A stretch of DNA of 51,974 bases from a virus (Duplodnaviria > Caudoviricetes), in the IMG/VR virus record IMGVR_UViG_3300031473_000132, positions 1-51,974 of that record; one strand, given 5' to 3'. Made by a program: the position numbers and the translations under genes. The notes under the pieces are model-generated. The model was not told where the DNA came from. It was given only the letters and a program-made list of their open reading frames with translations, and did no database searches. Of this stretch, positions 10,751 to 38,963 are shown one piece after another. The first letter of the stretch is position 1. The number at the start of each line of letters is the position of its first letter.

Positions 10751-10763
10751 ATCCAACGATTTA

Positions 10764-10845
10764 TGATATAATCAAAGTAACGAAATACGAGTGCTCCGGC
10801 GTGGTTGGACCCACCCGGAGCGCGTCACTGGAAGGTCTAATTCCA
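10764..10845 (+). promoter_or_regulatory. Nuclease-cassette leader copy A
   Basis: TGATATAAT..GCTCCGG-C-GTGG-TTGGAC-CCAC-CCGGAGC-GCGTCAC-TGGAAggtctaaTTCCA-ATG. Confidence 0.75.
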
Positions 10846-11499
10846 ATGAATCCTCAGGATACCTCATCCGACATCCCCTACGGGTATTGCCACTGCGGTT
10901 GCGGCCAGAAAACCTCGATCGCCCAAAACTCTGCACCACATCGAGGGTATCTTCGGGGCGAGCCATCCAAGTACATTGCAAATCACTTTCACGCGCCTAA
11001 TCGCCCAGCTACCGAACCTGAAGCACGATTCTGGAAGTTAGTTGACCGACGTGGTCCTAACCAGTGCTGGGAATTCAAGGGTTCAAAAGGCAGGAACGGG
11101 TATGGGCAGGTCTGGTCGTACGGAAAGATAATCCGAACACATCGATTTTCTTGGACCATCCACCACGGCCCGATTCCGGATGGAATGTTCGTCTGTCATC
11201 GTTGTGACAACCCGTCTTGTGTCAATCCGGATCACCTATTTCTAGGGACACATCTTGAGAACATGGCCGACATGACCCGGAAGGGTCGTGGGAGAAATTC
11301 AGGAGAAGGTCGTCCCGGAGAAAACAATCCGTGCCATATCCTCACCGAAGTAGACGTTCTTGCTATTCGTAATGACCCTGAATTGAGCAAGCTCTCACAA
11401 GTTGAGGTTGGCCTACGGTTCGGCGTCTCCCGCCAAACGGTTTCCGACATTCGGAGCGGGAAGCGGTGGCGATATCTGCTTGAAGAGGCCGGACGATGA
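10846..11499 (+). CDS. HNH endonuclease (CxCGCG N-terminus, HNH_3-type core, C-terminal HTH)
   Basis: YCHCGCG, RFWKLV..CWEF, HRFSW..VCHRCDNPSCVNPDHLFLGT..N; in-frame upstream ATG at 10747. Confidence 0.92.
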   Translation: MNPQDTSSDIPYGYCHCGCGQKTSIAQNSAPHRGYLRGEPSKYIANHFHAPNRPATEPEARFWKLVDRRGPNQCWEFKGSKGRNGYGQVWSYGKIIRTHRFSWTIHHGPIPDGMFVCHRCDNPSCVNPDHLFLGTHLENMADMTRKGRGRNSGEGRPGENNPCHILTEVDVLAIRNDPELSKLSQVEVGLRFGVSRQTVSDIRSGKRWRYLLEEAGR

Positions 11500-11642
11500 G
11501 CGAAGGGATCATCATGTTTGCCGCAGTCGTCACCCTCCTTTTGCTCATCGTCCTGTTTACAAACATGTTCAATGAAATTGCCGACCTGCGACATCGGGTC
11601 AATGACCTGGAGTCGAGCGCAAGAAGGGACGGTGGCACATGA
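11496..11642 (+). CDS. Small single-pass membrane protein (48 aa)
   Basis: MSEGIIMFAAVVTLLLLIVLF...; ATGA overlaps at both ends. Confidence 0.55.
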   Translation: MSEGIIMFAAVVTLLLLIVLFTNMFNEIADLRHRVNDLESSARRDGGT

Positions 11643-11905
11643 GCACCCGCATCGTCCGCGACAAGGCCGTTTACAACGGCGCTCCCATCATCGCTGGAAC
11701 GAGATGGCCCACGTCCAACGCTCGCAACTTCGGCTACGACGTGGATGCGATCGCATCCGCGTATCCGCATGTGAGCATCAGTCAGATCGAGGCGGCTATT
11801 TCATTCGAACGCAGTTGGCATCGCCGCCTGGAACACGCATGGTGGGCGCTGCGGCACCGGCTGGGCGCGTGGATCGCGGGATGGGATGGGCCGGGGGATG
11901 AATGA
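11639..11905 (+). CDS. DUF433-family protein
   Basis: RIVRDKAVYNGAPIIAGTR..IASAYPHVSISQIEAAISF. Confidence 0.8.
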   Translation: MSTRIVRDKAVYNGAPIIAGTRWPTSNARNFGYDVDAIASAYPHVSISQIEAAISFERSWHRRLEHAWWALRHRLGAWIAGWDGPGDE

Positions 11906-12305
11906 GCCGTTGATCGTCAACATTCCCGGCACGGTCACGCTGATGCATTCACCGAACGGCCGGGCGCATTGGCGCACGAAACACAAGCTGACCGCAGAAC
12001 TCCGGTACACGGCGCGTATGGCCACGATCGAAGCGGTTGGCGGCGATCCCAACGTGTGTTATCCGTTTCCGTCCTATCCGATCCGACTCGACTACACCGT
12101 GGGGTGGGAGTCCAGGCGGCGTCATTTTTGGGATGACGACAACTTTATTGGCGCCGCAAAATTGATCAGAGACGCCATCGCGTCCGTGCTCGGAATCGAT
12201 GATAGGCATTTCATCACTGGCAGCGTGACGCAGGAATACGACCCGGCCAAGCGCGGATACATCCTGGTCAGGATCGCCAGCGTCGCGGAGGAGGCAGCAG
12301 CATGA
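11898..12305 (+). CDS. RusA-like Holliday junction resolvase
   Basis: SPNGRAHW..DDDNFIGAAKLIRDAIA..IDDRHF acidic motif. Confidence 0.7.
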   Translation: MNEPLIVNIPGTVTLMHSPNGRAHWRTKHKLTAELRYTARMATIEAVGGDPNVCYPFPSYPIRLDYTVGWESRRRHFWDDDNFIGAAKLIRDAIASVLGIDDRHFITGSVTQEYDPAKRGYILVRIASVAEEAAA

Positions 12306-12727
12306 AGGCCATCAGCATCATCCAGCCATGGGCGTCTTTAATCGGCCTTGGTGAGAAACGGATCGAAACTCGCTCCTGGTCGACACACTACCGCGGACCT
12401 ATCGCGATCCACGCCTCGAAGGCAATACCCCGCGAGGTCCTGGAACTGGTCCATTCCACGCCTCACCTACGCCGAGCCCTCATACATTGTGGCGTCCACG
12501 CACTGGCGGACCTCCCGAGAGGGGGAATTGTCGCGACCGCGACGCTCGTCGACTGTGTTCGCATCGACAATCATTTCGACTTTACCGGATATCCCGAATA
12601 CGAGCGATCGCTTGGGTTTTACGCTGAAGGGCGGTTCGGCTGGATTATGGAGAACATTGCGGCGTTGCCTGACCTTGTTCCGGCCAAAGGCAATCTCGGT
12701 ATCTGGGAGTGGGAAGACGCAGCATGA
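12302..12727 (+). CDS. ASCH domain protein
   Basis: MKAISIIQPWASLI..GEKRIETRSW..YRGPIAIHAS..KGNLGIW. Confidence 0.92.
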   Translation: MKAISIIQPWASLIGLGEKRIETRSWSTHYRGPIAIHASKAIPREVLELVHSTPHLRRALIHCGVHALADLPRGGIVATATLVDCVRIDNHFDFTGYPEYERSLGFYAEGRFGWIMENIAALPDLVPAKGNLGIWEWEDAA

Positions 12728-13119
12728 TCGATCCCATTACTTTGGGCAAATACCACGACGAGCGGTGGGCAAAGGTATGGCGTTACATACGTCAATGGTG
12801 CTCTGGGTGGGAGTATCAGATCGCGCTTGCGCTCCTTGGATATACGCCACACATTGTCGATCGTTGGGCTGATGGCATTGCGCCACAACCAGACGATTTG
12901 AGTCTTGAGCAGTCTGCACGAATCAACAAGCTTGTGGAGGTTATCAACGCAAAGATGACGCGCAAGTATTGGGTGACGGGCAGCGGCCTGCGGTACGAAT
13001 GGCGAGAGGACAACAAGATAGTGGAAGTGCCGTGGACGACAGGTGACGATCACCCGGGGGACGTCGCACCGATAGCAGATCTCGAGGTATTTCGCCGAAA
13101 ACAGGTGGTGACACCATGA
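12724..13119 (+). CDS. Hypothetical phage protein
   Basis: ATGA overlap with ASCH gene. Confidence 0.6.
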   Translation: MIDPITLGKYHDERWAKVWRYIRQWCSGWEYQIALALLGYTPHIVDRWADGIAPQPDDLSLEQSARINKLVEVINAKMTRKYWVTGSGLRYEWREDNKIVEVPWTTGDDHPGDVAPIADLEVFRRKQVVTP

Positions 13120-13407
13120 CCACCATCGCAACCCGCCGCACTGCATGGCCAGCGTCCGGTGGGCGTGCGCGAAGCTGGCCGGGAGATGCGTAAAGCAGCC
13201 CTCCCAGACGACACTCCGGCCCTGATCGTGCGATGATGCCGACGTTGGCGGGCGGTTGTTGCCACTCCTCCCGCCGACGCCCGTCCGGGGCGGTTGGTGG
13301 ACGATAGCAGCCGCCCCGGACACCCTCACCCCCACTGGCCGTCTGCGCCGCAGAGAAAAGCAAGATAGAAGAAGTCAAAACACCAGGAGATTCGTGCTCC
13401 AAACCCC

Positions 13408-13437
13408 TTGACGTTGTTATATAACATGTTGTAATAT
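13408..13437 (+). promoter_or_regulatory. Sigma70-like promoter with palindromic operator in the spacer
   Basis: TTGACG-N18-TAATAT; TGTTATATAACA palindrome at 13415-13426. Confidence 0.7.
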
Positions 13438-13489
13438 ATACAGAGAGATGAGGGGAATGCCCTTACACAACAGCACAAAGGGAAGCGCA

Positions 13490-13807
13490 ATGATTCGATA
13501 CCACGAAGCCACTGATGCGAATCGTGTCGCCGAGCTGGTGGCAAGCATGGAAGTCAACGGCTGGCAAGGGTCGCCCTTGGTCACACTCGGTGATGGCGAG
13601 TTGTTGACCGGCGCGCACCGGCATACCGCCTACGTCCAAGTTTTTGATACGGATTACGGCATTCCAACCATCTCGCTCGACGACGTGTTCACCGAGGCGG
13701 GGCTTGATCTCGCGGGCGTCATGGAGGAGGAGCGGTGTGAGTTGATCTATGTGCTCGATCACCTCCCGGCCGATGTCCGCCAGGAGTACGGCATTGATAT
13801 CCACTAA
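13490..13807 (+). CDS. Stand-alone ParB/Srx-like domain protein
   Basis: VAELVASMEVNGWQGSPLV..LLTGAHRHTAY. Confidence 0.7.
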   Translation: MIRYHEATDANRVAELVASMEVNGWQGSPLVTLGDGELLTGAHRHTAYVQVFDTDYGIPTISLDDVFTEAGLDLAGVMEEERCELIYVLDHLPADVRQEYGIDIH

Positions 13808-14210
13808 GAGAACATGGACGTCTAGCCAGATCGTTGCCCTGCGGGACCGGCACGGCTGGTCTCAGCGGGAGATGGCCGAACACTTGACCGCTCACGATTC
13901 CAACCTGCGGACCGTCACGACCACAGTGAGCGGGTGGGAGCGAGGACATCGCTCGCCCGGAGCCCATGCCAGTTCCGCGCTGACGGCCGTCGCCTTGCAC
14001 GCGGGCTATCCCGTCACCGTGACCATGCACGACGGTCGGACCCGGTCCGGCACGCTCACGACGGAGTCCTCTGCCAGTTCCTACGGCTTGCCAGTCGTGG
14101 TGATTGGCGGCATGGCATACGGCTCCGGCGACATCAGTGACGTTGATGCCGGTGATGTGCCGGGTGGCATCCGCGACGCTGCCACCCGTGCGGGATACAT
14201 GATGCGATGA
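13794..14210 (+). CDS. XRE-like HTH protein
   Basis: IVALRDRHGWSQREMAEHL..TVSGWERGHRSP; AGGAG before TTG13794. Confidence 0.7.
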   Translation: MISTKRTWTSSQIVALRDRHGWSQREMAEHLTAHDSNLRTVTTTVSGWERGHRSPGAHASSALTAVALHAGYPVTVTMHDGRTRSGTLTTESSASSYGLPVVVIGGMAYGSGDISDVDAGDVPGGIRDAATRAGYMMR

Positions 14211-14217
14211 ATTCATC

Positions 14218-14769
14218 ATGACGCGCGCCTATGCCAAACGATCGGCGTGCATCGATTGCGGGCAGCCAACGGGACGACCGAACACGCGGTGCGCGGCATG
14301 TGCCAGGATCGCCAGGTCTGCCCGGAACAAGGAATATCAGCAGCGCTACCACGTCGAGCATCGACCCAGCCCGCAACCGAGACCGCAGCGAGACCCCGCC
14401 TTGCCACCGTACGGCGAGATCGTCACCGACGATGAGCGCATCCAGTGCCACGTTTGTGGAACGTTCTACGGATCGCTCGTGACGCATATCCGGACGCATG
14501 GTCTCGACGCCGATCGCTACAAGGAGCGGTTCGACCTTCCCCGGACGTGCTCGCTGCTGGGACCGGCGGCGGCGGCGAAACAGCGCGCGGCGGCCATCGC
14601 GCGCAACCAGGGCGAGATCGGACGAGCGAATATCCCTCGCGGTTCAAGCCGCCCGAGGGGGTTGCCGATGCGGCTGGGATCGCGCATCAATGCGCGCGAT
14701 GGGCAGCGAGCCCCTGCTGCGAAAAAAGCCACCACCGGCCGCCGGGAACCCGATGCGCCTCTTGACTGA
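14218..14769 (+). CDS. Ros/MucR-like Zn-finger protein
   Basis: IQCHVCGTFYGSLVTHIRTHGLDADRYKERFDLP plus N-terminal CxxC pairs. Confidence 0.75.
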   Translation: MTRAYAKRSACIDCGQPTGRPNTRCAACARIARSARNKEYQQRYHVEHRPSPQPRPQRDPALPPYGEIVTDDERIQCHVCGTFYGSLVTHIRTHGLDADRYKERFDLPRTCSLLGPAAAAKQRAAAIARNQGEIGRANIPRGSSRPRGLPMRLGSRINARDGQRAPAAKKATTGRREPDAPLD

Positions 14770-14827
14770 CCCATAGATCGAATTGGGACGGCGGTAACAG
14801 GTGCGGCAAGACTGGTTGGTAAAGGTA

Positions 14828-14857
14828 TTGACACATAACACCAGTGTGGTGTATATT
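14828..14857 (+). promoter_or_regulatory. Sigma70-like promoter with inverted repeat in the spacer
   Basis: TTGACA-N18-TATATT; ACACCA-GTG-TGGTGT at 14838-14852. Confidence 0.7.
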
Positions 14858-14914
14858 AATTACATCAGGAACGGGAAGCGATCCCGGCCACAATCACCGA
14901 GGGAGATGACGATA

Positions 14915-15181
14915 ATGAACACCCAGACCACGAGGGACGAGACGGAAGGTGTACTGATCGCCGCCAATGACGCGGTAAACGAAGCCCTCAAAGTGCGCGA
15001 GGCCGCGATCCGCCACCTGCTACAGGTGGTCAAAATCGAGGGAGCCTGGGACCTTCACGCCGAAGCCCGCCAGGCGATGAATGCCACGAAAGCGCCCCTG
15101 CGAGCGGCATCAGAGGCCTACCGTGCCGCAAGTGTCGCGTGGGCCATGTGCCATTACCCCGGCGATGAAGTTCCAGCCTAA
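14915..15181 (+). CDS. Hypothetical phage protein
   Basis: GGGAG RBS; first gene after promoter. Confidence 0.6.
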   Translation: MNTQTTRDETEGVLIAANDAVNEALKVREAAIRHLLQVVKIEGAWDLHAEARQAMNATKAPLRAASEAYRAASVAWAMCHYPGDEVPA

Positions 15182-15237
15182 TCGTTCATCAGGGGAGCCA
15201 CGATCCGCTCCCCACGTTCAACCCGGAAAGGACCATC

Positions 15238-15534
15238 ATGACCACTACAACGATCAGCCGGAAGTCGCGGAATCTCGCCTACACATGGATGCACGTCACC
15301 GACCATCCGTATACCGGGACATCACATGGCGATCCATTCCCGGAGACCACCGACAAGCGCATGTCGTATTCGCAGATGATCGACGAACGCGAACGCGAAC
15401 AACGCGAGACGGCATGGACCACCGGAGCGTTGTACGTTGATGGAAAGCGCGTTCTGACTCCGGTCCGCGACGTGCTCGAAGACCTCTCGTTGCTCGTTCC
15501 TGGCGAAACATGCGCGGTTGAGGTGGCATCATGA
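15238..15534 (+). CDS. Hypothetical phage protein
   Basis: AAAGGA RBS. Confidence 0.65.
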   Translation: MTTTTISRKSRNLAYTWMHVTDHPYTGTSHGDPFPETTDKRMSYSQMIDEREREQRETAWTTGALYVDGKRVLTPVRDVLEDLSLLVPGETCAVEVAS

Positions 15535-16151
15535 CGGGGCTCGACTTCGATCCGGCCCATGTGCCGACGTGGGTATCGGACGAATCGACTGAGAAACTGG
15601 AAGGGCTTCTCGGCCAGGCCTATCGCGAACAGCGTGTCACCACGATCAAGGTGAAAAGCGGAAGGCTGCTCTCCACCGAGATCATGAGCTGGAACAATTC
15701 CACGGTCACATTCCGCATCCTCGACAACGACCAGATCATGACGCGCGGATTCGTCGCTCTCAGCGAGGTCGTGCTCACGCTGAGATCAACGAACACCCTC
15801 GACAAGGCGCGGTTCACCGCCTCAATCGAACGCGAGCGGACATCGATCGGCCAACTGGTCCGGGAAGAGCGGCAACGTTCTGGCCTTACGCAAGCCCAAC
15901 TCGGCAGGGAAACGGGAGTATCGGCGAATTACATCTCGAACATCGAAAACGGGAGCGCGATTCCCACGAACAGCGACACGATTCGCAAGCTCGCCGATGC
16001 GCTCCATGTCTCCGATTACGAGGTGTTTGCCGCCGCCCAGCGCGTTCCGGATGATGTTCTCGAATACCTCTCCGGGAATGCGGAGGCCATCAAGCGCGTT
16101 CGGGAGATGCAGGAGTTCACGGAACGACGCCACGACAAGAAACCGGAATAA
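15531..16151 (+). CDS. Protein with C-terminal XRE HTH domain
   Basis: IGQLVREERQRSGLTQAQLGRETGVSANYISNIENG. Confidence 0.85.
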   Translation: MTGLDFDPAHVPTWVSDESTEKLEGLLGQAYREQRVTTIKVKSGRLLSTEIMSWNNSTVTFRILDNDQIMTRGFVALSEVVLTLRSTNTLDKARFTASIERERTSIGQLVREERQRSGLTQAQLGRETGVSANYISNIENGSAIPTNSDTIRKLADALHVSDYEVFAAAQRVPDDVLEYLSGNAEAIKRVREMQEFTERRHDKKPE

Positions 16152-16321
16152 ATGCAATCAGACAGCTCGACTTGGCCGCGCCTAGACCGACACGCCGGCC
16201 AGCCGCAGCACGGCGTCCGCATCCTCGTGGGTCGGCGACAGTCGACGCACATCGCAGATTGCTTACCTTTTGGACCGCCACATTGAGGACAAACTCTGCT
16301 GAGTGTATTATGGGGACGCAT
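16016..16321 (-). pseudogene. Truncated Zn-finger (nuclease-like) gene
   Basis: CPQCGGPKGKQSAMCVDC N-terminus, no nuclease domain, runs into the convergent XRE gene. Confidence 0.5.
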
Positions 16322-16402
16322 CGAAGTTACTCCTTCGGTGTCATGGCGGGAGGTGCTGATAACACCTTCCGCCGCTTGCGTTTCGTTCTCATAATTATAG
16401 CA
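16322..16402 (-). promoter_or_regulatory. Nuclease-cassette leader copy B
   Basis: TGCTATAAT..GGCGGAAGGTG-TTATCAG-CACCTCCCGCC-ATGACAC-CGAAGgagtaaCTTCG-ATG. Confidence 0.75.
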
Positions 16403-19326: not shown

Positions 19327-19561
19327 GGTCGCCCTCCTGACGTGACGGACGGTTGGTAAGGTAGGCCCGTTCGAGGACGTTGGGGCGCAGGTGCAAGACT
19401 TTCTGGTCCTCGCCGATCCGCCCGGCATCGAGATCGTTGGTGAACGTGATCAGCCGCCGCTTGACGACCAATAGCTCCTCGGATTCCCGGATCGCGTCCC
19501 GGACGTGCGGGCTTTGGCGGTCAGGTATCAGGCGCCCGGTGATCCACCTCATGAAGCTCAT
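19316..19561 (-). CDS. Hypothetical lysis-region protein (MSFMRWITG...)
   Basis: GGAGG RBS; ATGA overlap with upstream gene. Confidence 0.65.
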   Translation of the reverse strand: MSFMRWITGRLIPDRQSPHVRDAIRESEELLVVKRRLITFTNDLDAGRIGEDQKVLHLRPNVLERAYLTNRPSRQEGDRDT

Positions 19562-19785
19562 TGCGGACCTCCCGGCACGATCTGCACGCCCTGCGCGCGG
19601 AGCAGGCTTGCCTGCAACGCGATCAGGTCGCGGGACGCCTTGTTGGATTCGTCGAGCTTGATCTCCAGCTTGTCGTTTTCCGTCTTCAAATCCTTGATCT
19701 CTGCCCGCAAGTAGAGAATCACGGCGGTCGTGAACGAGGACAAGAGCGTGAAGAGTCCGCCGATCGCCAGGTATTCGGGTGGCAA
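19558..19785 (-). CDS. Holin-like protein (one TM plus coiled coil)
   Basis: GGGGAG before TTG19785; LAIGGLFTLLSSFTTAVILYL followed by coiled coil. Confidence 0.65.
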   Translation of the reverse strand: MPPEYLAIGGLFTLLSSFTTAVILYLRAEIKDLKTENDKLEIKLDESNKASRDLIALQASLLRAQGVQIVPGGPQ

Positions 19786-19920
19786 AATTATTCTCCCCAC
19801 TTCGGCGATAGGGAGCACCCCTGATGAGGTTGGGGTGTAGATATGTTTTCATCTCCGTGCCCTTTCGTTTTTGGCATCCAGGACTGTTGATATCCAAAAC
19901 TGTTGATTTGGCGGGGATTT

Positions 19921-20009
19921 TGGTATACTTGTGGGGACGCAAAGTGACCCGGCGCAGCGCTAACTGCCCAGGTCGTGGCACCCCAGAAGCCTGTAAGGAG
20001 GCCCCCAAG
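19921..20009 (+). promoter_or_regulatory. Nuclease-cassette leader copy C
   Basis: TGGTATACT..GACCCGG-C-GCAG-CGCTAA-CTGC-CCAGGTC-GTGGCAC..GCCTgtaaggAGGC..ATG. Confidence 0.7.
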
Positions 20010-20549
20010 ATGCTCACCAAGAATACTCCAAACTCCATGTGCAAAACTTGTGGAGTCTCTTTCCGCAGAACTCCTTCCCAAATAAAAACAGGGAGGAAAT
20101 TGTATTGTTCCAAATCCTGTTCTATTCAAGGGCAGTACGGACGGCGAACCTTCGACAACATGCTTTGCCAGCAATGCGGAAAATCGTTCAGAGCAAAGCC
20201 GTATCGAATCGGCAGCGTGAAGTATTGCTCCATGAAGTGCTACAGGAAGGCACGAAAGGGGACTCCTCTTCGGCGAATAGAGGGCGTGACGGTTGAGATA
20301 TGCCATCGTGGATATCGCCATATTTGGCTTCCTCAACATCCATCGTGTGACTCGGAGGGATACGTTTCTGAGCATCGACTGGTCGCCGCAGCAATGCTGG
20401 GTCGCATGCTGAATGATCGTGAAATTGTTCACCACAAAGACGGCAATCGTCTGAACAATGACCCTTCCAACCTTCAGGTTATGTCCCAATCGGCTCACAT
20501 GAAGCTCCATCGCAATCAAGAACGAGAGTTGCGAGACAAGGCAGCGTGA
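20010..20549 (+). CDS. Zn-finger HNH endonuclease, antisense to late operon
   Basis: CxxC/YCSxxC repeats; GYVSEHRLV..VHHKDGNRLNNDPSNL. Confidence 0.92.
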   Translation: MLTKNTPNSMCKTCGVSFRRTPSQIKTGRKLYCSKSCSIQGQYGRRTFDNMLCQQCGKSFRAKPYRIGSVKYCSMKCYRKARKGTPLRRIEGVTVEICHRGYRHIWLPQHPSCDSEGYVSEHRLVAAAMLGRMLNDREIVHHKDGNRLNNDPSNLQVMSQSAHMKLHRNQERELRDKAA

Positions 20550-20633
20550 CTCATCAGGGTCGCCCTCCTTTCTGCGGTACGGAGCCCCGCGCACGAGCAC
20601 GTCGCTGATGTAGATGCCCATCGCGTATTCCTT

Positions 20634-23983: not shown

Positions 23984-23986
23984 GAC

Positions 23987-24364
23987 TTAGCTGATTCCCA
24001 TAGTCACAGTTATTGTGAAAACTTTCGTTTCTGTAGCGGCTTTCGTTCCGTTATCGGCAACCGTTCTGTTCATCATCGTGCCCACCGTAGAAGCGTTGTG
24101 GACGCCGAACTCGGCCCACACGTGGTTCGCGTCCGACGTTCCGAATGTCGAGCGAAACGTCATCACGTTTCCGGACACCTGCGGGTAGGTCGCGTCCATC
24201 GCCTTGCGCGTCTTGGTTGCGCCCTGTAAATCGGTCTGCGTGGCCGCGAAGGCCGCGCTGCTGATGCCGACGCCGATGTAGGCGTTGGCATTGTTGAAGA
24301 ACGTCACCGCGCCGCCTGTCGTGGCGAGTGCGAGCCAATCCCGATACGCATTTGTTCCTGGCAT
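23987..24364 (-). CDS. Minor tail protein
   Basis: YIGVG..TDLQG..FGTSDANHVWAEFGV..MMNR, typical of small tail proteins. Confidence 0.65.
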   Translation of the reverse strand: MPGTNAYRDWLALATTGGAVTFFNNANAYIGVGISSAAFAATQTDLQGATKTRKAMDATYPQVSGNVMTFRSTFGTSDANHVWAEFGVHNASTVGTMMNRTVADNGTKAATETKVFTITVTMGIS

Positions 24365-24368
24365 GTCG

Positions 24369-33200: not shown

Positions 33201-33948
33201 ACGATGTATCGGCCAGGTTGAGCATGATGTTGCGGAGCGCGGTGGCCCCGACCTCGCCCTTGATTCCGGCGTCCCCGAGAATGACCATCCCGGCCGCGAC
33301 GTCTTCCATTGGAATCCCGAGCGCCGCTGCCACCGGACCGGCACTCTTCAGCGCCAGCGCCCAGTCGTTGACGTCCAACGCACTCGCGTTCGCGCTTTGA
33401 GCGATCAGGTCCGTGGCGGTTGTGTAGTCCACGCCGAAGATGTTGACCGCCGCCGCCGCCGTTTCCGCTGCCAGCGGAACGTCTACCCCGGTCGCGTTCG
33501 CGAGTGCAAGGACTTGCTCGGTAGCGCCGTTGAGCACGTCAGGGAGGCTGGCGCCCGCCTTGATCATGATCTCCATCGCCTGCGCGGATTCGGTCGCGCT
33601 GAATGCGGTGTCCTTGCCGAGCCGGAGTGCCTCTTCACGCAGCTTGCCGATGTCCGATCCGGTCGCACCGGAGACCGACTGGACCGCGCTCATCTGTTGC
33701 TCGAACGAGGCGGCGCTCTTGACGGCAAAACCGAAGCCGCCCACCACCGCCGTGCCGAAGCCGACCATGCCGAGTCCGACCGCGCGGATCGATTGCTGGT
33801 TGCGCGTCGCCCAGCCCTGAAGGCCGGTCGCACTGCCGGACGTGGCGTCGAGGTTGCGCAGGCCCGCCCCGACCTGATTCAGCGCGGAAAGAGCGCCAGC
33901 AGCGTCGAGGTTGATGCGGCCTTCCGCGCTACCCAAACTATCTGTCAT
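27232..33948 (-). CDS. Tail tape measure protein (TP901-type core)
   Basis: FEQQMSAV..LREEALRLGKDTAFSATESAQAM..GIKGEVGATALRN; very long with tandem repeats; start ATG33948. Confidence 0.95.
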   Translation of the reverse strand: MTDSLGSAEGRINLDAAGALSALNQVGAGLRNLDATSGSATGLQGWATRNQQSIRAVGLGMVGFGTAVVGGFGFAVKSAASFEQQMSAVQSVSGATGSDIGKLREEALRLGKDTAFSATESAQAMEIMIKAGASLPDVLNGATEQVLALANATGVDVPLAAETAAAAVNIFGVDYTTATDLIAQSANASALDVNDWALALKSAGPVAAALGIPMEDVAAGMVILGDAGIKGEVGATALRNIMLNLADTSSEGSVALAGVGVSAYDTNGQFRGLEAITHDLAGTWSGLTQEQKLSLAQQVAGKDGAAAFTTIMDAQSKAVANNSDAFVDSKKRMTDTGTAAEQAAVRMNNFSGKLEQLKGSIETVAITIGSLLLPALTKIVEVITTVVNGFLNLPSGIQTAIAAFTGIAGVLALVGGGFLLLLPKILAVSTALRGVKDVETGLRSGGLISSIAPMIPVLLAAAAAAAIFYLAYKTNFLGFRDLINGVVDSVKNFVSNIKSAFDDLTGGGEGVTKLGNTLIHFKEAGLGMNPVVAIFHAIATALRAINGDNTPAFLVRLANGFDAVGNVVQSVIGYVQLFASVFGTLSQTMNPVSAALSAVAAVLAILSLRFPALAGVLGPLSSAFAFLSTAAQQFGDAIGKALSGDFSGALSSLLAGLGSVGSAFKNFGTGAKGAYDLAGKALDGLAKQFPGLAKVFTGLGQTARGAGNVISGAFHAVGSLLQGDFGGAIDGVKTLFTGLGQYITGIFGALFGVVGAAASGLRGLLGSAVDYLQGKFSAFSGTIGAIGGIFDGLIGIIGGLANAFSSLLQGDVSGFFSGLGDAATSAIELVKSGFTSLPTFIMEAFRAIPWTALFDGLKAAVSAIPGLLGDLGGVVMSWISAAAGAVDWSALVSGAGDIAGSIIGKLGDLAGAVGRWIADAASAVDFTGIVSGAKDIALEVVAKLGDLATAVGTWITNAATGVGDKFSTIADGAKDITGDIITKLGAFGAAAALWVLGGVQALVANLGSIASAVVSAAPEVVTQIVSKLGQFAAGAALWVLGGVQALASNLASIASAAVGAAPEIVTQIITKLGEFAGPAALWVLGGVRSIASNLASLASAVVGAVPEVVTSIFTKLGEFAGKAATWVLGGVQALVANLASLPSAIVSAVPEVVGQIFVKLGTFAAGAALWVLGGIQALVSNLASLPSAIVSAVPEVVTQIFTKLGTFAAGAALWVLGGVQALVSNLASLSSAIVAAVPEVVGQIFTKLGTFAAGAALWVLGGIQALVANLASLPSAIIAAVPEVVASIFTKLGTFAAGAAMWVLSGVQALVSNLASISGAVLGAVPEVVTQIFVKLGAFAAGAALWVLGGVQALVANLASLPSAIVSAVPEVVAQIFTKLGTFAAGAALWVLGGVQALVANLASLPSAVVGAVPDVVASIIAKLGSFAAAAARWVLTGIQALVANLASLPSAIVGAVPEVVGRIIQKLGQFGAAAARWVLGGVQALASNLAALPSAATGAVKDISGDVAKGLGNIKDAISTKIKDAVQGGVDAWTGAIGALKTIFSEVGDRLASLIDLSAITTAFDGMKGIISGIGDAINGVISKAQEASNKGYSLLQSGADFLTGSSGKKDDKGNAAPAPAIPNPANIADLQKAVDKLYGSLTTLNSGLNTVGSAISGLGGYINAFGIAVSSLNDGPLTTLNAGFPIVAATIAGFVGSTLGLMSGWSTAMTTFLTTLNSGPLTTLNAGFPIVSTTIATFVGATLTSMSGWSTGVTTFLTTVTTGLTTFSTAVTTMSVTVGATLTALATGFIMTGTLLTAAFTAWALGLTTFTMAVTLMATTVGISLTALATGFIMTGVLLTAAFLAWGLGMTAFELAVTTMSINVGVALTGLATGFIMTGTLITTALTAWALGLVTFDLAVSTMSINVGVSLTGLATGFITTGTLVASATVAMSSSVIAMTATVASALIVVAASATSGMATFTNAIRTGASSAASAMSSSIISMTATVASAMIVVGASGASGMNTFRSAVTSGAQQASSAFQSACSSISSAASSMASQVGSAASNAGNQLASGLGNGARNAAGQVQSALGAIPGIVSSIGASAAGAAYSAGANISSSFASGMYSALGAIQAAAGAMVAAADAAIRAKARIASPSKLFGKLGRFTGQGFEMGIRDMIPAVARASAALVAVPTGYGFGAVSPAAALWANAPASSGTSSTVNYYTTNQITQQPGEDGEQLARRIVQVMHQDYVDVNGMGR
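29416..30999 (-). repeat. Twelve 132-bp (44-aa) tandem repeats in tape measure gene
   Basis: LGxFAAGAALWVLGGVQALVxNLASLPSAIVxAVPEVVxxIFTK counted 12 times. Confidence 0.9.
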
Positions 33949-33983
33949 GGCAGCTCTTCCAGTACTAAGGAAGGGCCACCAAA

Positions 33984-34064
33984 TGGTATAATTGAGGAAC
34001 ACAAAAGGCCGGAGCACTGCGCAAACAGCCCCCGGCATGACACCTTAGCGATAGGACCGCCAAG
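33984..34064 (+). promoter_or_regulatory. Nuclease-cassette leader copy D
   Basis: TGGTATAAT..GCCGGAGCACTG-CGCAAA-CAGCCCCGGC-ATGACAC-CTTaGCGataggacCGCcAAG-ATG. Confidence 0.75.
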
Positions 34065-34883
34065 ATGCCCCCCCAGTTTACTCAGCTTCCTCTTATTCCA
34101 TCCACTCCAATTGACCCATACTCGCGTTCCGGTAAGGTGTTCTCGTGTGAATTGTGTGGTACACCATTCTACCGATACCTTGCGGACATTCGAAAAGCTG
34201 AATCTCGCGGAGCTCGTATTAGGTTCTGTTCGAACATCTGTGCTCGCAAGGAAAAGGCTTCCACAAACAGAAAATGCACCTGTGAGCAGTGTGGTGAATC
34301 GTTCATCGTCTGGGCTAGTGTGTTCATTCATGCAGTGGAGTGGGGTAACGGTGCCGGCAGATTCTGTTCCGCAAATTGTCGCGATGTTTTTATGGCAGAG
34401 GCTCGCCGCACCGCGATAATGGTTCCGTGCATGACGTGTGGCAAACTGCACCGCAGAATCCCCGCACTGATCAGAGAGCGTATGTTTTGCTCTGCCAAGT
34501 GCATGGGCGCGCAAGTCCAAGCGTGGGCCCGCTTCAGCTTTTACGGCATAGGGGGGAAGCGCGCCGATATCGGAAACCACTACTTCCGAAGTCGATGGGA
34601 AGCGAATATCGCTCGAATGCTTAACGCTATGAATATGACGTGGGAATACGAACCGCGAACCTTCGACTGCGCTACTGGGTTCTACACACCGGATTTTCTT
34701 ATCGATGGAAAGTATTGGATTGAAGTGAAGGGGTACCTGACGCCGATTGCGAGAGCGAAGATGGATGCGTTTCGCATGCAATATCCCGACGAGCGCCTCG
34801 TTGTTATCGATCGTGCCATGTACAAAACTTTGCAGCGCGAATGGGAACCCCGTATTCCTGAATGGGAGCACTCTGCTACTTGA
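34065..34883 (+). CDS. Zn-finger PD-(D/E)XK endonuclease, antisense to late operon
   Basis: Three CxxC..FCSxxC units; FRSRWEANIA..WEYEP..YTPDF..IEVKGY. Confidence 0.88.
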   Translation: MPPQFTQLPLIPSTPIDPYSRSGKVFSCELCGTPFYRYLADIRKAESRGARIRFCSNICARKEKASTNRKCTCEQCGESFIVWASVFIHAVEWGNGAGRFCSANCRDVFMAEARRTAIMVPCMTCGKLHRRIPALIRERMFCSAKCMGAQVQAWARFSFYGIGGKRADIGNHYFRSRWEANIARMLNAMNMTWEYEPRTFDCATGFYTPDFLIDGKYWIEVKGYLTPIARAKMDAFRMQYPDERLVVIDRAMYKTLQREWEPRIPEWEHSAT

Positions 34884-34906
34884 TTCGGTTGTGGGGGGCG
34901 CCAAAG

Positions 34907-35001
34907 AGCGCGAGATGTGCATGCAAAAGCTCCGATGCTGGAGCCTCGCCTGCGCATCTCGCGCTACGGAGGACTTATACTGATCTGCGAGAATTATACC
35001 A
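34907..35001 (-). promoter_or_regulatory. Internal leftward promoter with structured leader
   Basis: TGGTATAAT at 35001-34993; GCGCGAGATG..CATCTCGCGC stem enclosing GCTCC-agcatc-GGAGC-TTTT. Confidence 0.6.
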
Positions 35002-35042
35002 TTGATGCGAATCGCAGCGGTGACGAGCGAAGGGATCCGGGT

Positions 35043-35537
35043 ATGGGGTTGTTCGGCAAGAAGAAGACAAAAAGCGATCGTGAAATATACCTAGAATCAC
35101 TCTCGAAAACATATCAGAAAATTCTGCATAAAGATGCCATACTGGAAACGGTAAACAACTTGATGCCTGGAGAATCAATCGTGATTGTGATTCAGGGATT
35201 GTGGGATTCAGCGATCATTGCCACAGAGCATCGAGTGTTCATCTACAAACGCGGCATGATGGGAGGGGCCATGGGTGGTTCCAAGCTCATTACGTGGGAC
35301 ATGGACGTTATCCATGGAGTGCAAATGGAGTTCGGCAAGAATACCGGCTTCATATCATTACAAACGCCGAATGCAACAGTAGCTGATATGAGTTACTGGG
35401 CGACCGATGCCACATCGCCGCAAAAAGCGCCCAACGCAATCGCGATCAACAAGCCGCTCAAGAATCAAGCAAATATCGGTGTCATTCAACTCCGGACGCT
35501 TCTCTTTCAGCGAAAGCATATAAGCACTTCCGATTGA
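35043..35537 (+). CDS. Moron-like gene encoding a bacterial PH-domain-like protein
   Basis: Lower GC, opposite strand; AIIATEHRVFIYKRG..IHGVQMEFGKNTGFISL. Confidence 0.7.
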   Translation: MGLFGKKKTKSDREIYLESLSKTYQKILHKDAILETVNNLMPGESIVIVIQGLWDSAIIATEHRVFIYKRGMMGGAMGGSKLITWDMDVIHGVQMEFGKNTGFISLQTPNATVADMSYWATDATSPQKAPNAIAINKPLKNQANIGVIQLRTLLFQRKHISTSD

Positions 35538-35607
35538 AGGTAGGCCTTCGACGCGGGAATGACCCCGCATCGATCTCTTCCAATACTTATCCCGGCTCAA
35601 TCCCTTT

Positions 35608-35955
35608 CTACAACAGCGCCGTGGGCAAGTGCGACAACGCTTCGGACGCTGGCAACGTCACGTCACCAGGCGCATCCTCATCGACGTCGAACAACAATTG
35701 GAACATCGTGTACTTCGGCACCTGAATCACCGTGCTGCCCTTCGGCGGCGCCTTCGGCATCGAAACGACCTTGTCCACCAGTTCGTCGCGACGATTCTCG
35801 ATCACCCGCGCCAGCGACATCACCGCCCGGTCGAAATCGTAGGCCGTCGTGGGCGAATAGCCGTTCGCCTCAAGTCGCATCCGGTCGGACGGCATCTGTC
35901 CGTACCGCTGACAGAGCTGGTCGAGGTCCCACACTTCGAGCCGGTTGCTCAGGAA
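35608..35955 (-). CDS. Tail assembly chaperone C-terminal extension (frameshift product)
   Basis: FLSNRLEVWDLDQLCQRYGQMPSD..AYDFDRAV in +1 frame of the upstream chaperone. Confidence 0.6.
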   Translation of the reverse strand, partial: FLSNRLEVWDLDQLCQRYGQMPSDRMRLEANGYSPTTAYDFDRAVMSLARVIENRRDELVDKVVSMPKAPPKGSTVIQVPKYTMFQLLFDVDEDAPGDVTLPASEALSHLPTALL

Positions 35956-36418
35956 ACGTGGCAAACTGCTTCGCCTCCACGCCACTCGTGCCGAAGCTGC
36001 GCAGCATGTATTCCCGGCGATCCCGCGAATCGACCTCATCGACACTGATCTGCGTGTCCTCATTCGTGACCACGTCCACGACCTGCGGTTCGATCCAGCC
36101 GAGCTTCACCAGCGCGATCCCGATCTCGTATTCGCGGTTCAGGACCTCGTCACCGGGCAGACCGGCGAACGGGTTGGCCTCATCGTCCAGCTCTTCGGAG
36201 GGCTTGCCGCGCAACGTCGCGCTTGCCGCAATCGACTTGTAGATCATCTGCTGGAGTTCGGACGGGAATGTGCCAATGATCGCGTGGTCGGTGATGTCGA
36301 GATCTCGGACACGCACGACCGCACCGCTCGGCGCCTCCCACTCCGTTCCGGCGTTGCGTCGCTGGCGGTAGGCGCTGGCGGTGCTGATCTGTCGTGGCTC
36401 CTGGGTCTTGACTGGCAT
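35870..36418 (-). CDS. Tail assembly chaperone
   Basis: Between major tail and tape measure; PSGAVVRVR and WIEPQV motifs. Confidence 0.7.
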   Translation of the reverse strand: MPVKTQEPRQISTASAYRQRRNAGTEWEAPSGAVVRVRDLDITDHAIIGTFPSELQQMIYKSIAASATLRGKPSEELDDEANPFAGLPGDEVLNREYEIGIALVKLGWIEPQVVDVVTNEDTQISVDEVDSRDRREYMLRSFGTSGVEAKQFATFPEQPARSVGPRPALSAVRTDAVRPDAT

Positions 36419-36478
36419 GAAAGGGTTCCCCTCTGCGCTCGTCGCGCTCTGGAGTAAAGGCAAACGGTCAATCACTCG

Positions 36479-37009
36479 TTAGATGAGCGTGGTCCAGGTT
36501 GCGTACGCCTCATAGGTGTACAGCTCCTTGGTCGTGTCGGCCGGGATCGCCTTGGCGCTCACGCTGAACTCGGCGAACTCGTTGTCCTTGAAACCGAAGT
36601 CCGGTCCGCCCTGCCACGCCACTTTGGGATAGGTGATCCGGGCCGCGCCGCCATCGCTGTCCTTCGTGCGGGTCTGGCCCACGAGCTTGTAATAAGCCAC
36701 GACGTCGTCGCTCTTGCGTACCAGTTTGGTGACGGCGGTCGTGCCGGTCCCCGCAGTGGAGACGGTACCTCCGGCACTCGCGGCAAGTGACACCGGGGTA
36801 TAGGCACCCAGGATGATCGTGAGGTCGAGCGAGTTGAATGTCGCGGCCGAGGCGATCACGCTATCGTCACCCCGGTTCTCGATCGTATCGATATTGGCGC
36901 TCTGTTCGATGGATTTGACGGCGACAATGTCCACGAGTGATCCGGCGACGCCTGCGACGTACGGATAGGCCGCCGCGTCCTGCAAGCTAAATGGTTGTGT
37001 TCCTGGCAT
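36479..37009 (-). CDS. Major tail (tube) protein
   Basis: 176 aa, ENRGDD motif, synteny; GGAGG RBS. Confidence 0.75.
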   Translation of the reverse strand: MPGTQPFSLQDAAAYPYVAGVAGSLVDIVAVKSIEQSANIDTIENRGDDSVIASAATFNSLDLTIILGAYTPVSLAASAGGTVSTAGTGTTAVTKLVRKSDDVVAYYKLVGQTRTKDSDGGAARITYPKVAWQGGPDFGFKDNEFAEFSVSAKAIPADTTKELYTYEAYATWTTLI

Positions 37010-37232
37010 GTGCGTGTTCCTCCGGCCCTGCGGCCTGTACTGGTATGGATTCCTGTGCGGCGCGGGTCACGAACGAGCCCGTCGCCAGATCGAAGACGTG
37101 GATCACCGCCTCTCCTTCGGCGGTGCGACAGAACCGATCCGCGCACCGCACTTCGAGCATGCCCGTCGCCTCGACCGCCCACCCCCACGTATTGCCGGGA
37201 CAGCGGAGCGGCTTGTAGCGACGACCGCTCAC
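36987..37232 (-). CDS. Small Cys-containing protein, weakly Com-like
   Basis: PLRCPG..MLEVRCADRFC. Confidence 0.5.
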   Translation of the reverse strand: MSGRRYKPLRCPGNTWGWAVEATGMLEVRCADRFCRTAEGEAVIHVFDLATGSFVTRAAQESIPVQAAGPEEHAHARNTTI

Positions 37233-37615
37233 ACCCGCACCACGAGGATGTCGTCATATACGCGAAACGCCTGTCGGTGTACCGGATGCATCCGCATCAG
37301 CACCTCGATGTCGTGCGACTCCATCTCGACCTCGAAGACGAACGGCCCGAAGACGTACGTACGGCTGAGACCATGTTCCGGTCCGAGCGTCAGTTGCGTC
37401 CGGCCTGGTACGCGCGCGAACCCCTGCATCTGGCGCTTGCGTTCCTGGTCCGTCAATTCCCGCCGCAACAGGGCCCGTTCGCGCAAATCCTGCTTGCGTT
37501 GCTCGCCAGATGACCGTATCGAGGCGGCGAGCATCTTCTGCACGTCGGGATAGGCATATGGTGAAAGCAGTCCAAGGAACTCGACACGTCGAATGCTTGT
37601 CGCGACAGCGTCCAC
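37229..37615 (-). CDS. Hypothetical tail-region protein
   Basis: GTG37615 just after upstream stop; GTGA overlap downstream. Confidence 0.6.
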   Translation of the reverse strand: MDAVATSIRRVEFLGLLSPYAYPDVQKMLAASIRSSGEQRKQDLRERALLRRELTDQERKRQMQGFARVPGRTQLTLGPEHGLSRTYVFGPFVFEVEMESHDIEVLMRMHPVHRQAFRVYDDILVVRV

Positions 37616-37616
37616 G

Positions 37617-37787
37617 CTACTTGCCCGTGCTCTTCGGATCGGTCTTCGGAGCGGGCTTCGACTCGTCGTCGGCGGTCTGGTACGGTTCCGGATCGCCGAA
37701 GTTGACACTCACCCCGGACGGCAACGGCGTGCCGTTCTTCAGCGCTTCCTCGACCTGCTTCTTCACTGCGTCACTGAGCTTCGCCAT
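37617..37787 (-). CDS. Small hypothetical protein (MAKLSDAVKK...)
   Basis: AGGAGG RBS. Confidence 0.65.
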   Translation of the reverse strand: MAKLSDAVKKQVEEALKNGTPLPSGVSVNFGDPEPYQTADDESKPAPKTDPKSTGK

Positions 37788-37788
37788 G

Positions 37789-38262
37789 TCACTGGCCTCC
37801 TGCGATATGCCGCACCGTTTGGACGCGGTAGCGGCGAAAGGTATTCCAGACATCACCGGGCAGTTCATCCGCTCTCAACGGCCGGGCCCGGTAGCCGGTC
37901 GCCGCGATGTCCGCGTTGCCGATCTGCACACCGTGCAGCAGTTCCATCACCCGCTGGTCGGCGGGGTCGAACGTCGCGGCCATCTGTGCACGTTCCGCGT
38001 AGAAGTAGCATTCCGGCCACAGGTCGGAATCGAGCCGCCGTTCGGGATTTCGGCCCACCGGCGAGTCAACTTCCTGCGGCTCGAGAAGAACGATTGTGGG
38101 TTTGAGCCGCTTGACGCCCGTCACCGGATTGGGCTGCCATGCCGCGCCCGTCACCGGATCGGTTGGCGAGAGCGGCTGATCGTAAATCCCGCCCACAAGG
38201 ATTGATGAAAGCAGAGCGTCTTCTCTCAAAATCCTTAGGATTTCGGAAAGAACGTAGCTCAT
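37789..38262 (-). CDS. Tail terminator-like protein
   Basis: ILRILREDALLSSILVGGIY; synteny after HK97 gp10-like gene. Confidence 0.6.
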   Translation of the reverse strand: MSYVLSEILRILREDALLSSILVGGIYDQPLSPTDPVTGAAWQPNPVTGVKRLKPTIVLLEPQEVDSPVGRNPERRLDSDLWPECYFYAERAQMAATFDPADQRVMELLHGVQIGNADIAATGYRARPLRADELPGDVWNTFRRYRVQTVRHIAGGQ

Positions 38263-38280
38263 ACCGAAATCCCGGTGGGG

Positions 38281-38357
38281 TATAATTGAGACAACGAAAA
38301 GCCGACGCGGTGGTGAGACACCCGTCGGCACGGCACATCAGTGATTGGACCACCAAC
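38281..38357 (+). promoter_or_regulatory. Nuclease-cassette leader copy E
   Basis: TATAAT..GCCGACG-C-GGTG-GTGAGA-CACC-CGTCGGC-ACGGCAC..GTGattggacCAC..ATG. Confidence 0.75.
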
Positions 38358-38963
38358 ATGCCTGCCAAGGGTACCACCGTCGTTACCAAGATCAAAAGAA
38401 CCTGTGCATTTTGTGGCGCTCCTTTCGAGATTTATCCTTCTCAGCTTCGATGGGGAGCTCGGAAGTTCTGTACTCGTAAGTGCGACAACCTTTCTCGCAT
38501 CCAGCCGCTTGAAGAGCGGTTTTGGAGCAAGGTTGACCGTAGTGGCGGTCCGAACGCTTGCTGGATGTGGATGGACCACAAATGGGGCCCGATGAGATAT
38601 GGCGGGTTCTACGTCGCCAAGCATGAGCATGTTTACGCACACCGCTTCGTCTGGGAATTGACGCATCAAGCGATCTCCGACGGTCAGTTTGTGTGCCACG
38701 TCTGCGACACCCCGGCTTGCGTGAACCCCGCACATCTCTTTCTTGGTTCCGCGAGAGACAATGTTCGAGATATGATCTCGAAGCGTCGCAATCAACACGG
38801 AGAACAACATCACAAGGCGCGTCTGACCGAGATTGATGTCATTGCCATTCGAGACATTTACGCACTGGGTAAAATGAATCAATACGAATTGGCACAACGA
38901 TTCAATGTGGGTCAACGCACAATTGGCGATATTGTGCTGCGGAAGACGTGGACGCATGTCTAA
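38358..38963 (+). CDS. Zn-finger HNH endonuclease, antisense to late operon
   Basis: CAFC..FCTRKC; RFWSKV..CWMW; AHRFVW..VCHVCDTPACVNPAHLFLGS..N; C-terminal HTH. Confidence 0.92.
   Translation: MPAKGTTVVTKIKRTCAFCGAPFEIYPSQLRWGARKFCTRKCDNLSRIQPLEERFWSKVDRSGGPNACWMWMDHKWGPMRYGGFYVAKHEHVYAHRFVWELTHQAISDGQFVCHVCDTPACVNPAHLFLGSARDNVRDMISKRRNQHGEQHHKARLTEIDVIAIRDIYALGKMNQYELAQRFNVGQRTIGDIVLRKTWTHV

Follow-up and report, generated by a model that had tools for sequence, protein, structure and literature searches.

The stretch of DNA analysed in this study, referred to below as the window, is the complete IMG/VR virus record IMGVR_UViG_3300031473_000132, a single contig of 51,974 bases with approximately 60% G+C, in which five copies of one promoter-proximal leader, L1 to L5, precede nuclease-type cassettes. 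The five loci were found where an original prediction, made from the letters of the window, had placed them, and they share one layout: a −10 promoter box is followed by an A-rich tail, a hairpin (P1), a box of the form RYGNCAC, a small hairpin (P2) with the Shine-Dalgarno sequence (SD), and the ATG. Leader L1 (10764..10848, + strand) begins with the extended −10 box TGATATAAT at 10764-10772 and, after the A-rich tail, carries P1 at 10793-10821, the box GCGTCAC at 10822-10828, P2 with the SD, and the ATG at 10846. On the − strand, L2 (16319..16402) has the extended −10 box TGCTATAAT at 16402-16394, P1 at 16373-16345, the box ATGACAC at 16344-16338, a P2 formed by CGAAG and CTTCG with the SD in its loop, and the ATG at 16321. 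The other three lie on the + strand. L3 (19921..20012) comprises the extended −10 box TGGTATACT at 19921-19929, P1 at 19946-19974, the box GTGGCAC at 19975-19981, P2 and the ATG at 20010, and L4 (33984..34067) comprises the extended −10 box TGGTATAAT at 33984-33992, P1 at 34008-34036, the box ATGACAC at 34037-34043, P2 and the ATG at 34065. L5 (38278..38360) has its −10 box at 38278-38286, P1 at 38301-38329, the box ACGGCAC at 38330-38336 and the ATG at 38358. As predicted, the promoter boxes of four copies (L1 to L4) read TGnTATAMT, while that of L5, GGGTATAAT, is without the TG; the five RYGNCAC boxes were also correctly quoted and lie directly 3′ of P1.

P1 is 29 nucleotides (nt) long in all five copies. 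In L1, L3, L4 and L5 it consists of 7 base pairs (bp), a bulged C, 4 bp and a 6-nt loop, with two A·C mismatches adjoining the bulged C in L4, and in L2 it consists of 5 bp, an A·C mismatch, 5 bp and a 7-nt loop, without a bulge. RNAfold placed P1 in the minimum-energy fold of 5/5 leaders. It also predicted P2 around the SD in L1 to L4, so that the second hairpin claimed to enclose the SD was recovered in these four, but was weak in L5, where GGCA of the box pairs with UGCC of AUGCC. When the five P1 sequences were aligned without gaps, 8 of the 11 pairs were changed on both sides and 87.3% of the cells were paired, which was reached by 0/500 shuffles, and controls with slid partners gave 31–47%; the covariation claimed for the stems was thereby borne out. 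A covariance model (R1) built from the five leaders and run with filters off over the 51,974 bases returned exactly these five (45.5, 37.6, 46.8, 46.9 and 46.7 bits for L1 to L5, respectively), with the next best match at 15.1 bits. These results confirmed the five-locus observation, far beyond chance. L4 is most alike to L5, and L1 to L2, despite the unrelated open reading frames (ORFs) that follow them. The hexamer TATAMT occurs only nine times on both strands of the whole genome, and seven of these, judged by eye, are of extended or near-extended form, namely those of the five leaders, of a sixth HNH gene and of a − strand site at 34998. Scans for consensus promoters and terminators missed the five promoters, because they require a −35 box and an unbulged stem.

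The genes behind the five leaders are of different kinds. The 217-amino acid (aa) n1 (10846..11499, +) is an HNH_3 endonuclease (8.6e-16) with a C-terminal helix-turn-helix (HTH), and is 43% identical over 156 aa to n5 (38358..38963, +), a zinc-finger and HNH_3 endonuclease of 201 aa with the same architecture. The HNH_3 architecture of n3 (20010..20549, +), a zinc-finger and HNH_3 endonuclease of 179 aa, differs from these, in agreement with the two HNH styles predicted. Behind L4, n4 (34065..34883, +; 272 aa), which is divergent from the tape-measure gene, combines zf-FCS repeats with an endonuclease-I-like PD-(D/E)XK domain; this assignment, also predicted, was supported by PHROG endonuclease/resolvase families at 1e-13, but the Pfam match of 24.3 bits is under the 29.1-bit cut-off. 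Zinc-finger repeats are common to n3, n4 and n5, which all run antisense to the surrounding late operon (n3 to tail genes and n5 to head-tail genes), whereas n1 and n2 are codirectional with their neighbours. The fifth gene, n2 (16016..16321, −), had been taken for a truncated nuclease, which was not supported: its 101-aa product has a CxxC...CxxC zinc ribbon at the N-terminus but no nuclease domain, the 3′ part of the ORF overlaps the convergently oriented regulator gene at 15531-16151, and tblastn of all the nucleases revealed no nuclease remnant in 15400-16400. As a contrast, the sixth HNH_3 gene, n6 (7661..8209, −; 33.5% identical to n3), lies antisense to the early operon and has no P1/P2 leader; its TGCTATAAT box at 8224-8216 ends only six bases before the ATG at 8209, and therefore the n6 mRNA is probably leaderless.

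Leaders outside the window were collected with R1 and then with R2, a covariance model from 13 sequences. At HNH loci, with a threshold of E up to 0.01, a same-strand leader was detected before n1-like HNH genes at 9 of 50 IMG/VR loci (plus one weak match), at 39 of 80 metagenome loci, each approximately 20–120 nt from the tblastn match, and at 2 of 6 loci of genome_contigs, and further IMG/VR loci under the threshold displayed, by eye, a like layout. At the same threshold, no leader was found at 60 loci of n3-like HNH homologues, therefore the leader is not a general feature of HNH genes; two of these loci (L108 and L109) share an identical sub-threshold match of 13.8 bits approximately 105 nt upstream. 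A search of IMG/VR for n4 relatives yielded no match to the pattern, and blastn of one actinobacterial leader found no match in the phage collection.

In total, 48 distinct leaders were collected, and 46 distinct sequences entered the P1 alignment. In that alignment, which was fitted to the model and so favours pairing figures, 94.8% of the cells were paired, 11/11 pairs were changed on both sides, and 135 cells were compensatory vs. a shuffled mean of 35.8, a number reached by 0/500 shuffles, with slid controls again at 31–47%. Several positions were near-invariant, namely the bulged C (40/46), the G-C pairs flanking the bulge (41/46 and 37/46), the last two loop bases, both A (42/46 and 35/46), and the G of the box (39/46). 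The promoter accompanies the hairpin, as the −10 box ends 12–26 nt upstream of P1 in all 48 leaders, TGn is present in 37/48 and at least five of the six bases of TATAAT are matched in 37/48, and the eight bases before P1 are 56% A (200/360) compared with 20% A genome-wide. Within P1, G·U pairs (17) and A·C-type mismatches (15) were nearly equally frequent, so neither strand is favoured and this strand test is uninformative. No consistent complementarity was seen by eye between the P1 loop and P2 or the downstream region in the five window copies and two related loci. Two other roles for the box were considered and rejected: as an alternative partner of the P1 5′ arm it showed no covariation by eye on the 46-sequence alignment, and as the start of an upstream mini-ORF, its ATG/GTG in L2, L3 and L4 opens, by eye, 4–6 codons in L2 and L4 only and is not conserved.

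A second constraint was observed at the start codon. Every leader is able to form the small hairpin P2, with the SD in its loop and 3′ arm, and its sequence varies widely. In 35 leaders, the box ends in NCA(C/A/T) and P2 abuts the start codon, and base +4 is C in 30 of them. When the box base before CA was compared with base +4 in these 35, the combinations were G:C in 21, A:U in 2, U:A in 1 (n1, where the box GUCAC faces AUGA) and G:U in 1, while the non-pairs were A:C in 8 and others in 2. This pattern thus suggests that the box is the 5′ strand of an outer helix closing over the start codon. Since the ORFs behind the 35 leaders include HNH, PD-(D/E)XK, serine recombinase, Cas1 and GIY-YIG genes, that is, unrelated proteins, the +4 constraint acts on RNA. 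In the other 41 leaders, the box is mostly GGCC or GGUC and GAC stands before the start codon in 21; A occupies base +4 in 29 of them, and 11 have AGC as their second codon. In folds of the segment from box to start, the AUG had a median unpaired probability of 0.36 and was below 0.5 in 33 of 47 leaders.

The distribution of the leader reaches far beyond nucleases and viruses. Whole-record scans of related viral contigs detected it before a PF01844 HNH gene, an HNH_3-AP2 gene, a 68-aa ORF of no assigned family and a second n1-like gene. When R2 was run over bacterial genomes in an unbiased way, with a per-genome threshold of E up to 0.001, 15 of 151 Chloroflexota genomes gave 22 matches and 27 of 151 Actinomycetota genomes gave 41 (a tally that includes one unpublished genome whose locus was left unread), so that approximately 10–18% of the sampled genomes of the two phyla carry a leader, and several genomes hold 4–7 copies. 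The phylum of a Desulfurivibrionaceae metagenome-assembled genome (MAG) had a match in 1/151 genomes and that of an Erysipelotrichales MAG in 0/151; because these phyla are less G+C-rich, they are weak controls for specificity. The downstream genes were then read at 21 Chloroflexota and 20 Actinomycetota or other loci, and their ORFs scanned against Pfam. Behind the bacterial leaders are three large serine recombinases and one truncated look-alike, five Phage_integrase-family genes (one starting 77 nt past the box, and two with matches of 23.8 and 26.1 bits, under the Pfam cut-off of 27.1 bits), a GIY-YIG/NUMOD3 endonuclease, a T5orf172 protein, two SWIM zinc-finger proteins, two HTH_17 excisionase-like proteins, one LuxR-type regulator, a zinc-finger protein and several ORFs without an assigned family. 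Three Cas1-family genes were also found, with no CRISPR context visible and no search aimed at such context made; they lie directly behind leaders L220, L237 and L238 in Chloroflexota and Actinomycetota, one has an N-terminal zinc-finger region, and they may be casposase-like solo Cas1 genes. The leader thus precedes at least 10 unrelated gene kinds (HNH, PD-(D/E)XK, GIY-YIG, T5orf172, solo Cas1, serine and tyrosine recombinases, excisionase-like HTH, SWIM and LuxR). Although 5/5 copies in this genome do precede nuclease-type cassettes, the proposal that the leader is dedicated to zinc-finger nuclease cassettes was contradicted by the copies before recombinases, integrases, solo Cas1, SWIM, HTH_17 and LuxR genes and at places without an ORF; what stands of the original prediction is a real, covarying, portable cis-acting leader common to dissimilar ORFs.

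To follow the cassettes between strains, contigs of four public DNA runs were compared with 19500-39400 of the window; no RNA run was listed as containing the phage. In one run, contigs of a co-occurring related strain had joints at 19782/20552, 33916/34882 and 38177/39269, although the shorter side is only 30 nt in two of them and intervening letters between the joined ends are possible. These contigs skip n3, n4 and n5 with their leaders (19783-20551, 33917-34881 and 38178-39268). For n3 and n4 the right-hand break is no more than 3 nt from the stop codon, and the n5 joint extends into the flanking genes, parts of which are lost as well. Further, a 7.3-kb contig (L051) shares 86% identity with the window over the terminase region, upstream of which it has an HNH_3-like cassette that is not in the window. 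Its positions 181-220 are 100% identical over 40 nt to window 10785-10824, which is P1 plus the eight preceding bases of L1, while the promoter, box and P2 differ, the flanks are unrelated, and the genome positions and nuclease cassettes are different. From the skipped n3 to n5 and the P1 shared by L051 and L1, it therefore appears that the mobile unit is promoter, leader and ORF together, which comes and goes, and that leaders are exchanged between cassettes.

No named family accounts for the leader. The window had no match at or above the gathering threshold in Rfam 15, three leaders compared with Rfam 15 at E up to 10 gave only chance microRNA-type matches, and seven bacterial loci at E up to 1 gave nothing relevant, in line with the earlier statement that no named Rfam family could be assigned. 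No published description of the leader was found in the literature on PeSLs, free-standing homing endonucleases, the SAS of Cluster K, and actinobacterial RNA motifs and integrases. The main text of a paper on 224 motifs (PMC5737381) has no entry for HNH or endonuclease genes and no integrase-linked actinobacterial motif; a motif present only in its supplements could remove the novelty. The leader is thus best described as a widespread structured leader and a candidate new RNA family, and the kind of control suggested for it is already known.

Known systems resemble the leader in part. According to the portions consulted of PMC3014915 and PMC2988022, hairpins at the ribosome-binding site (RBS) limit translation of T-even homing endonuclease genes (I-TevI, I-TevII/III, segB and Aeh1 mobE), and in Aeromonas phage 25 the RBS of seg43(25) is itself unsequestered, with a very stable hairpin immediately 5′ of it. 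The leader is like the former in that an RNA structure at the RBS of selfish nuclease genes is thought to hold translation low, and like seg43(25) in that P1 is a hairpin upstream of the RBS. In the T-even cases as described there, however, a late or middle promoter lies inside the hairpin and only read-through transcripts are silenced, whereas no leader has such a nested promoter, its −10 box lying upstream of both hairpins (48/48); the I-TevI analogy drawn earlier therefore applies loosely, to structure in the RBS region, and not to promoter arrangement. Moreover, the T-even hairpins are single cases, while the leader is a covarying family with dozens of members that extends beyond nucleases and phages. 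In PeSLs, found in T4-like phages, the stem-loop lies upstream of the promoter. These are repeated composites of a sigma70-type promoter, stem-loop, SD and start codon before accessory ORFs, linked in the parts consulted of PMC2839356 and PMC4122927 to gain, loss and swapping of those ORFs, and the stem-loop was shown to be a terminator, read as stopping transcription from upstream (PMC2839356). The leader, too, is a multi-copy composite of promoter and stem-loop that precedes the SD and start codon of accessory ORFs (the window has five; extended −10 in 37/48), but its stem-loop follows the −10 box and is thus part of the transcript, and no U-tract adjoins it in the sense direction, hence no terminator feature. 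The SAS of Cluster K mycobacteriophages, as far as the consulted text of PMC3203893 describes it, is a 13-nt sequence, GGGATAGGAGCCC, whose short complementary ends flank the SD and which lies 3–7 nt 5′ of the ATG; it is present in multiple copies before different gene families and is preceded, in about half of cases, by an inverted repeat (ESAS). The P2 hairpins of L4 (GCGATAGGACCGC) and L5 have a similar form, a 3-bp stem and a 7-nt loop; most members have other P2 sequences. The ESAS arms are 17-bp inverted repeats that keep a consensus, and because deviations in them do not compensate, the authors favoured a DNA-binding site (PMC3203893); in contrast, the leader arms vary and covary (all 11 P1 pairs compensatory), and SAS and ESAS are not tied to a promoter. 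Membership of the leader in ESAS was rejected, as R2 found no ESAS in TM4, where the best match (22 bits) is inside a gene.

From these features we infer transcription from the −10 boxes and an effect on translation, with any trans-acting partner likewise a matter of inference. The reading we lean towards, with somewhat better than even confidence, is that the five loci are copies of one promoter-proximal 5′ leader RNA of mobile cassettes, which would act in cis to attenuate or insulate translation. The compact extended −10 promoter, for which no −35 box would be needed, could start transcription in any genomic context, and the transcript, beginning 6–8 nt past the −10 box, would have an unpaired A-rich tail of 5–19 nt, which may be an unstructured landing site for the 30S subunit, followed by P1 (7 bp, bulged C, 4 bp, and a hexaloop ending in AA). 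Directly behind it, the box RYG-NCAC would pair, as the 5′ strand, with the start codon and the initial base or bases of codon 2 (GCA/UGC), and the weak outer helix so formed would close P2, with the SD in the P2 loop and 3′ arm. With this helix stacked upon it, P1 might then be a stable anchor that does not depend on context; the start codon and part of the SD would thereby be confined to a defined structure, which would make translation low and independent of flanking RNA. The predicted outcome is a low, reproducible level of a potentially harmful DNA-cutting or recombining enzyme, whatever the landing site or read-through transcript. A low-expression leader would fit the known need to limit homing-endonuclease expression (PMC2988022 and PMC3014915), and would suit integrases and recombinases equally.

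Several observations weigh against this reading. P2 has moderate formal support: of the P2 cells in a MAFFT alignment of 20 leaders, 69.2% were paired vs. 58.3% when shuffled (0/500 shuffles reached the observed value), and its stability is ordinary, with a mean z of −0.9 vs. mononucleotide shuffles. The SD had a median unpaired probability of 0.60 and was below 0.5 in 17 of 47 leaders; as it lies mostly in the P2 loop, its sequestration would be partial at best, and P2 could even present it. The eight A:C combinations of box and +4 base imply that the outer helix is imperfect, the unpaired 5′ tail of 5–19 nt argues against P1 as a simple stabiliser of the 5′ end, and the strict bulged C and loop AA, which a purely structural role in cis does not explain, hint at a partner. 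In addition, approximately 10 bacterial matches have no ORF, for which Rfam gave no match, and these do not fit a role in translation. Five of them in Chloroflexota (L216, L230, L221, L233 and L235) lie approximately 100–200 nt from tRNA genes and consist of P1, the box AUGGCCA and a second hairpin without an SD. Three of these five are antisense to and downstream of the tRNAs, with a U5–U7 tract, and are terminator-like, and two are on the tRNA strand, L230 after a clear promoter (TTGACT...TATGAT) and L221 after a weaker one (TTGACA...TACAAT). Three further Chloroflexota copies (L226, L228 and L231) also lack an ORF, and in them a stretch of approximately 25 nt (caccgaaccaaggaagg...) separates P1 and the box from a hairpin that has a U-run; they may represent a small RNA of approximately 110 nt that shares the 5′ module of the leader, and had no Rfam match.

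The main rival is that P1 is an operator hairpin bound by a trans-acting factor that sets translation or mRNA life and couples many mobility genes to one signal, which we regard as possible but on balance unlikely. It would account for the near-invariance of the unpaired bulge and loop positions and of the G-C pairs at the bulge, and for the presence of one hairpin before unrelated genes in two phyla, with 4–7 copies in several genomes. A 5′ bulge, a 4-bp upper stem and a 6-nt loop are also the architecture of RNA-phage coat-protein operators. The putative factor might be an RNA-binding protein or RNase that Actinomycetota and Chloroflexota hosts have in common, or the enzymes encoded in the cassettes. 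However, autoregulation by each enzyme is unlikely since the cassettes share no protein, no specific factor emerged from the analysis, and the bases around the bulge may instead be conserved for folding or for stacking on P2. A narrower form, in which a single host factor or signal, conserved in Actinomycetota and Chloroflexota, would dock on P1 and the box, seems rather doubtful to us; if true, phage homing-endonuclease cassettes, integrases and excisionases of prophages and islands, serine recombinases and solo-Cas1 elements would form a shared 'mobilome leader' regulon, in which translation of mobility enzymes is tied to a common host state.

Two further explanations concern the opposite strand and the DNA itself. 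If the opposite strand were selected, antisense P1 plus the complement of the A-rich tail would be an intrinsic terminator against opposing transcription, and in the ORF-less copies it would end tRNA operons. The arrangement of a GC hairpin directly followed by a U-tract is absent from the sense strand and occurs in antisense in some copies only (such as L4, L5, L233 and L235): the hairpin is followed by UUUUCGUU in L5 and CUUUUGUGUU in L4, by U5–U7 in L233, L235 and L221, and by similar tracts in L009 and L012. The antisense of L2 was flagged as terminator-like by a simple scan, the three antisense copies downstream of tRNA genes fit such a function, and the G·U and A·C-type counts in P1 do not speak for the sense strand. 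Nevertheless, this explanation is improbable, as most copies, including L1, L2 and L3, have 1–6 bases between stem and U-tract, a terminator in front of n3 to n5 would cut off the phage's own late operon, and it requires none of the conserved bulge, loop AA, box, P2 and +4 constraint, all of them features of the sense strand; the promoter, too, sits at a fixed distance on the sense side (37/48). The repeat might instead act as DNA, being a homology stretch for cassette exchange or a folded single-strand recombination site, with the RNA fold incidental. The 40 nt identical between L1 and a different cassette of a related phage with unlike flanks, the resemblance of L4 to L5 and of L1 to L2 before unrelated ORFs, and the presence or absence of cassettes between strains are compatible with it, and PeSL cassettes mediate such shuffling in the accounts consulted (PMC4122927 and PMC2839356). 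Yet stem sequences differ between copies, so that little homology is available for recombination; compensatory change keeps the pairing and not the sequence, the breaks in the variant contigs are 67–139 nt upstream of the −10 boxes and so outside the leader, and the +4 constraint and SD placement are RNA-level features. As the sole explanation, a DNA role is therefore very improbable, though it can coexist with a leader function. For some copies the antisense terminator and the DNA role each provide an explanation, but neither accounts for the box, P2 and the +4 constraint.

If the translation-control reading is true, mobile DNA in these lineages would share the leader as a regulatory currency, and throttling leaders of homing endonucleases, so far known only as single cases in T4-like phages, would have a widespread counterpart. 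The leader also offers a compact part of natural origin, promoter and leader in one, with which genes could be expressed at a low level, independently of context, in Chloroflexota and high-GC Gram-positive hosts, and a simple marker with which to find mobile cassettes in metagenomes.

PHROG matches outline the remaining genome. Early and replication genes, including RecT-like, ParB-like, methyltransferase, regulator and RusA-like genes, are on the + strand from approximately 290 to 16,150, and structural genes are on the − strand from approximately 16,400 to the end, with the large terminase at 48511-50043, the major head protein at 40364-41443, the major tail protein at 36482-37009, further tail proteins, and a tape measure of up to 2268 aa that ends at 27235. 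No relative of the window was found in INPHARED by megablast with 12 kb or tblastn with two large proteins, and relatives were found in IMG/VR and metagenomes only. Terminase relatives of 39–46% identity were detected in 4 of 301 Chloroflexota genomes and in none of the 301 Actinomycetota genomes searched, and both genome_contigs loci with leader-bearing n1-like genes are Chloroflexota MAGs, so the host of the phage is likely a member of Chloroflexota.

Some minor observations concern the surroundings of L4 and n4. The longest tape-measure ORF starts at 34038 (−) with an ATG that lies within leader L4; an in-frame ATG at 33948 with GGAAGAG upstream (window 33946-34038, −) is the more likely start, and the tape-measure PHROG matches begin at approximately residue 43–55 of the long form. 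After n4, two + strand ORFs (34917-35534 and 35559-36239) stand inside the − strand structural block, in the part of the genome with the lowest G+C (53%); they match no Pfam family, have one weak PHROG match, and may be further inserted cargo. A TGGTATAAT box lies at 34998-34990 on the − strand, and approximately 45 nt further on is the hairpin GCTCC-AGCAT-CGGAGC followed by TTTT (window 34915-34998), which together make a candidate small RNA of approximately 65 nt in the interval from n4 to the following ORF; positions 34978-35039 are likewise skipped by one variant contig.

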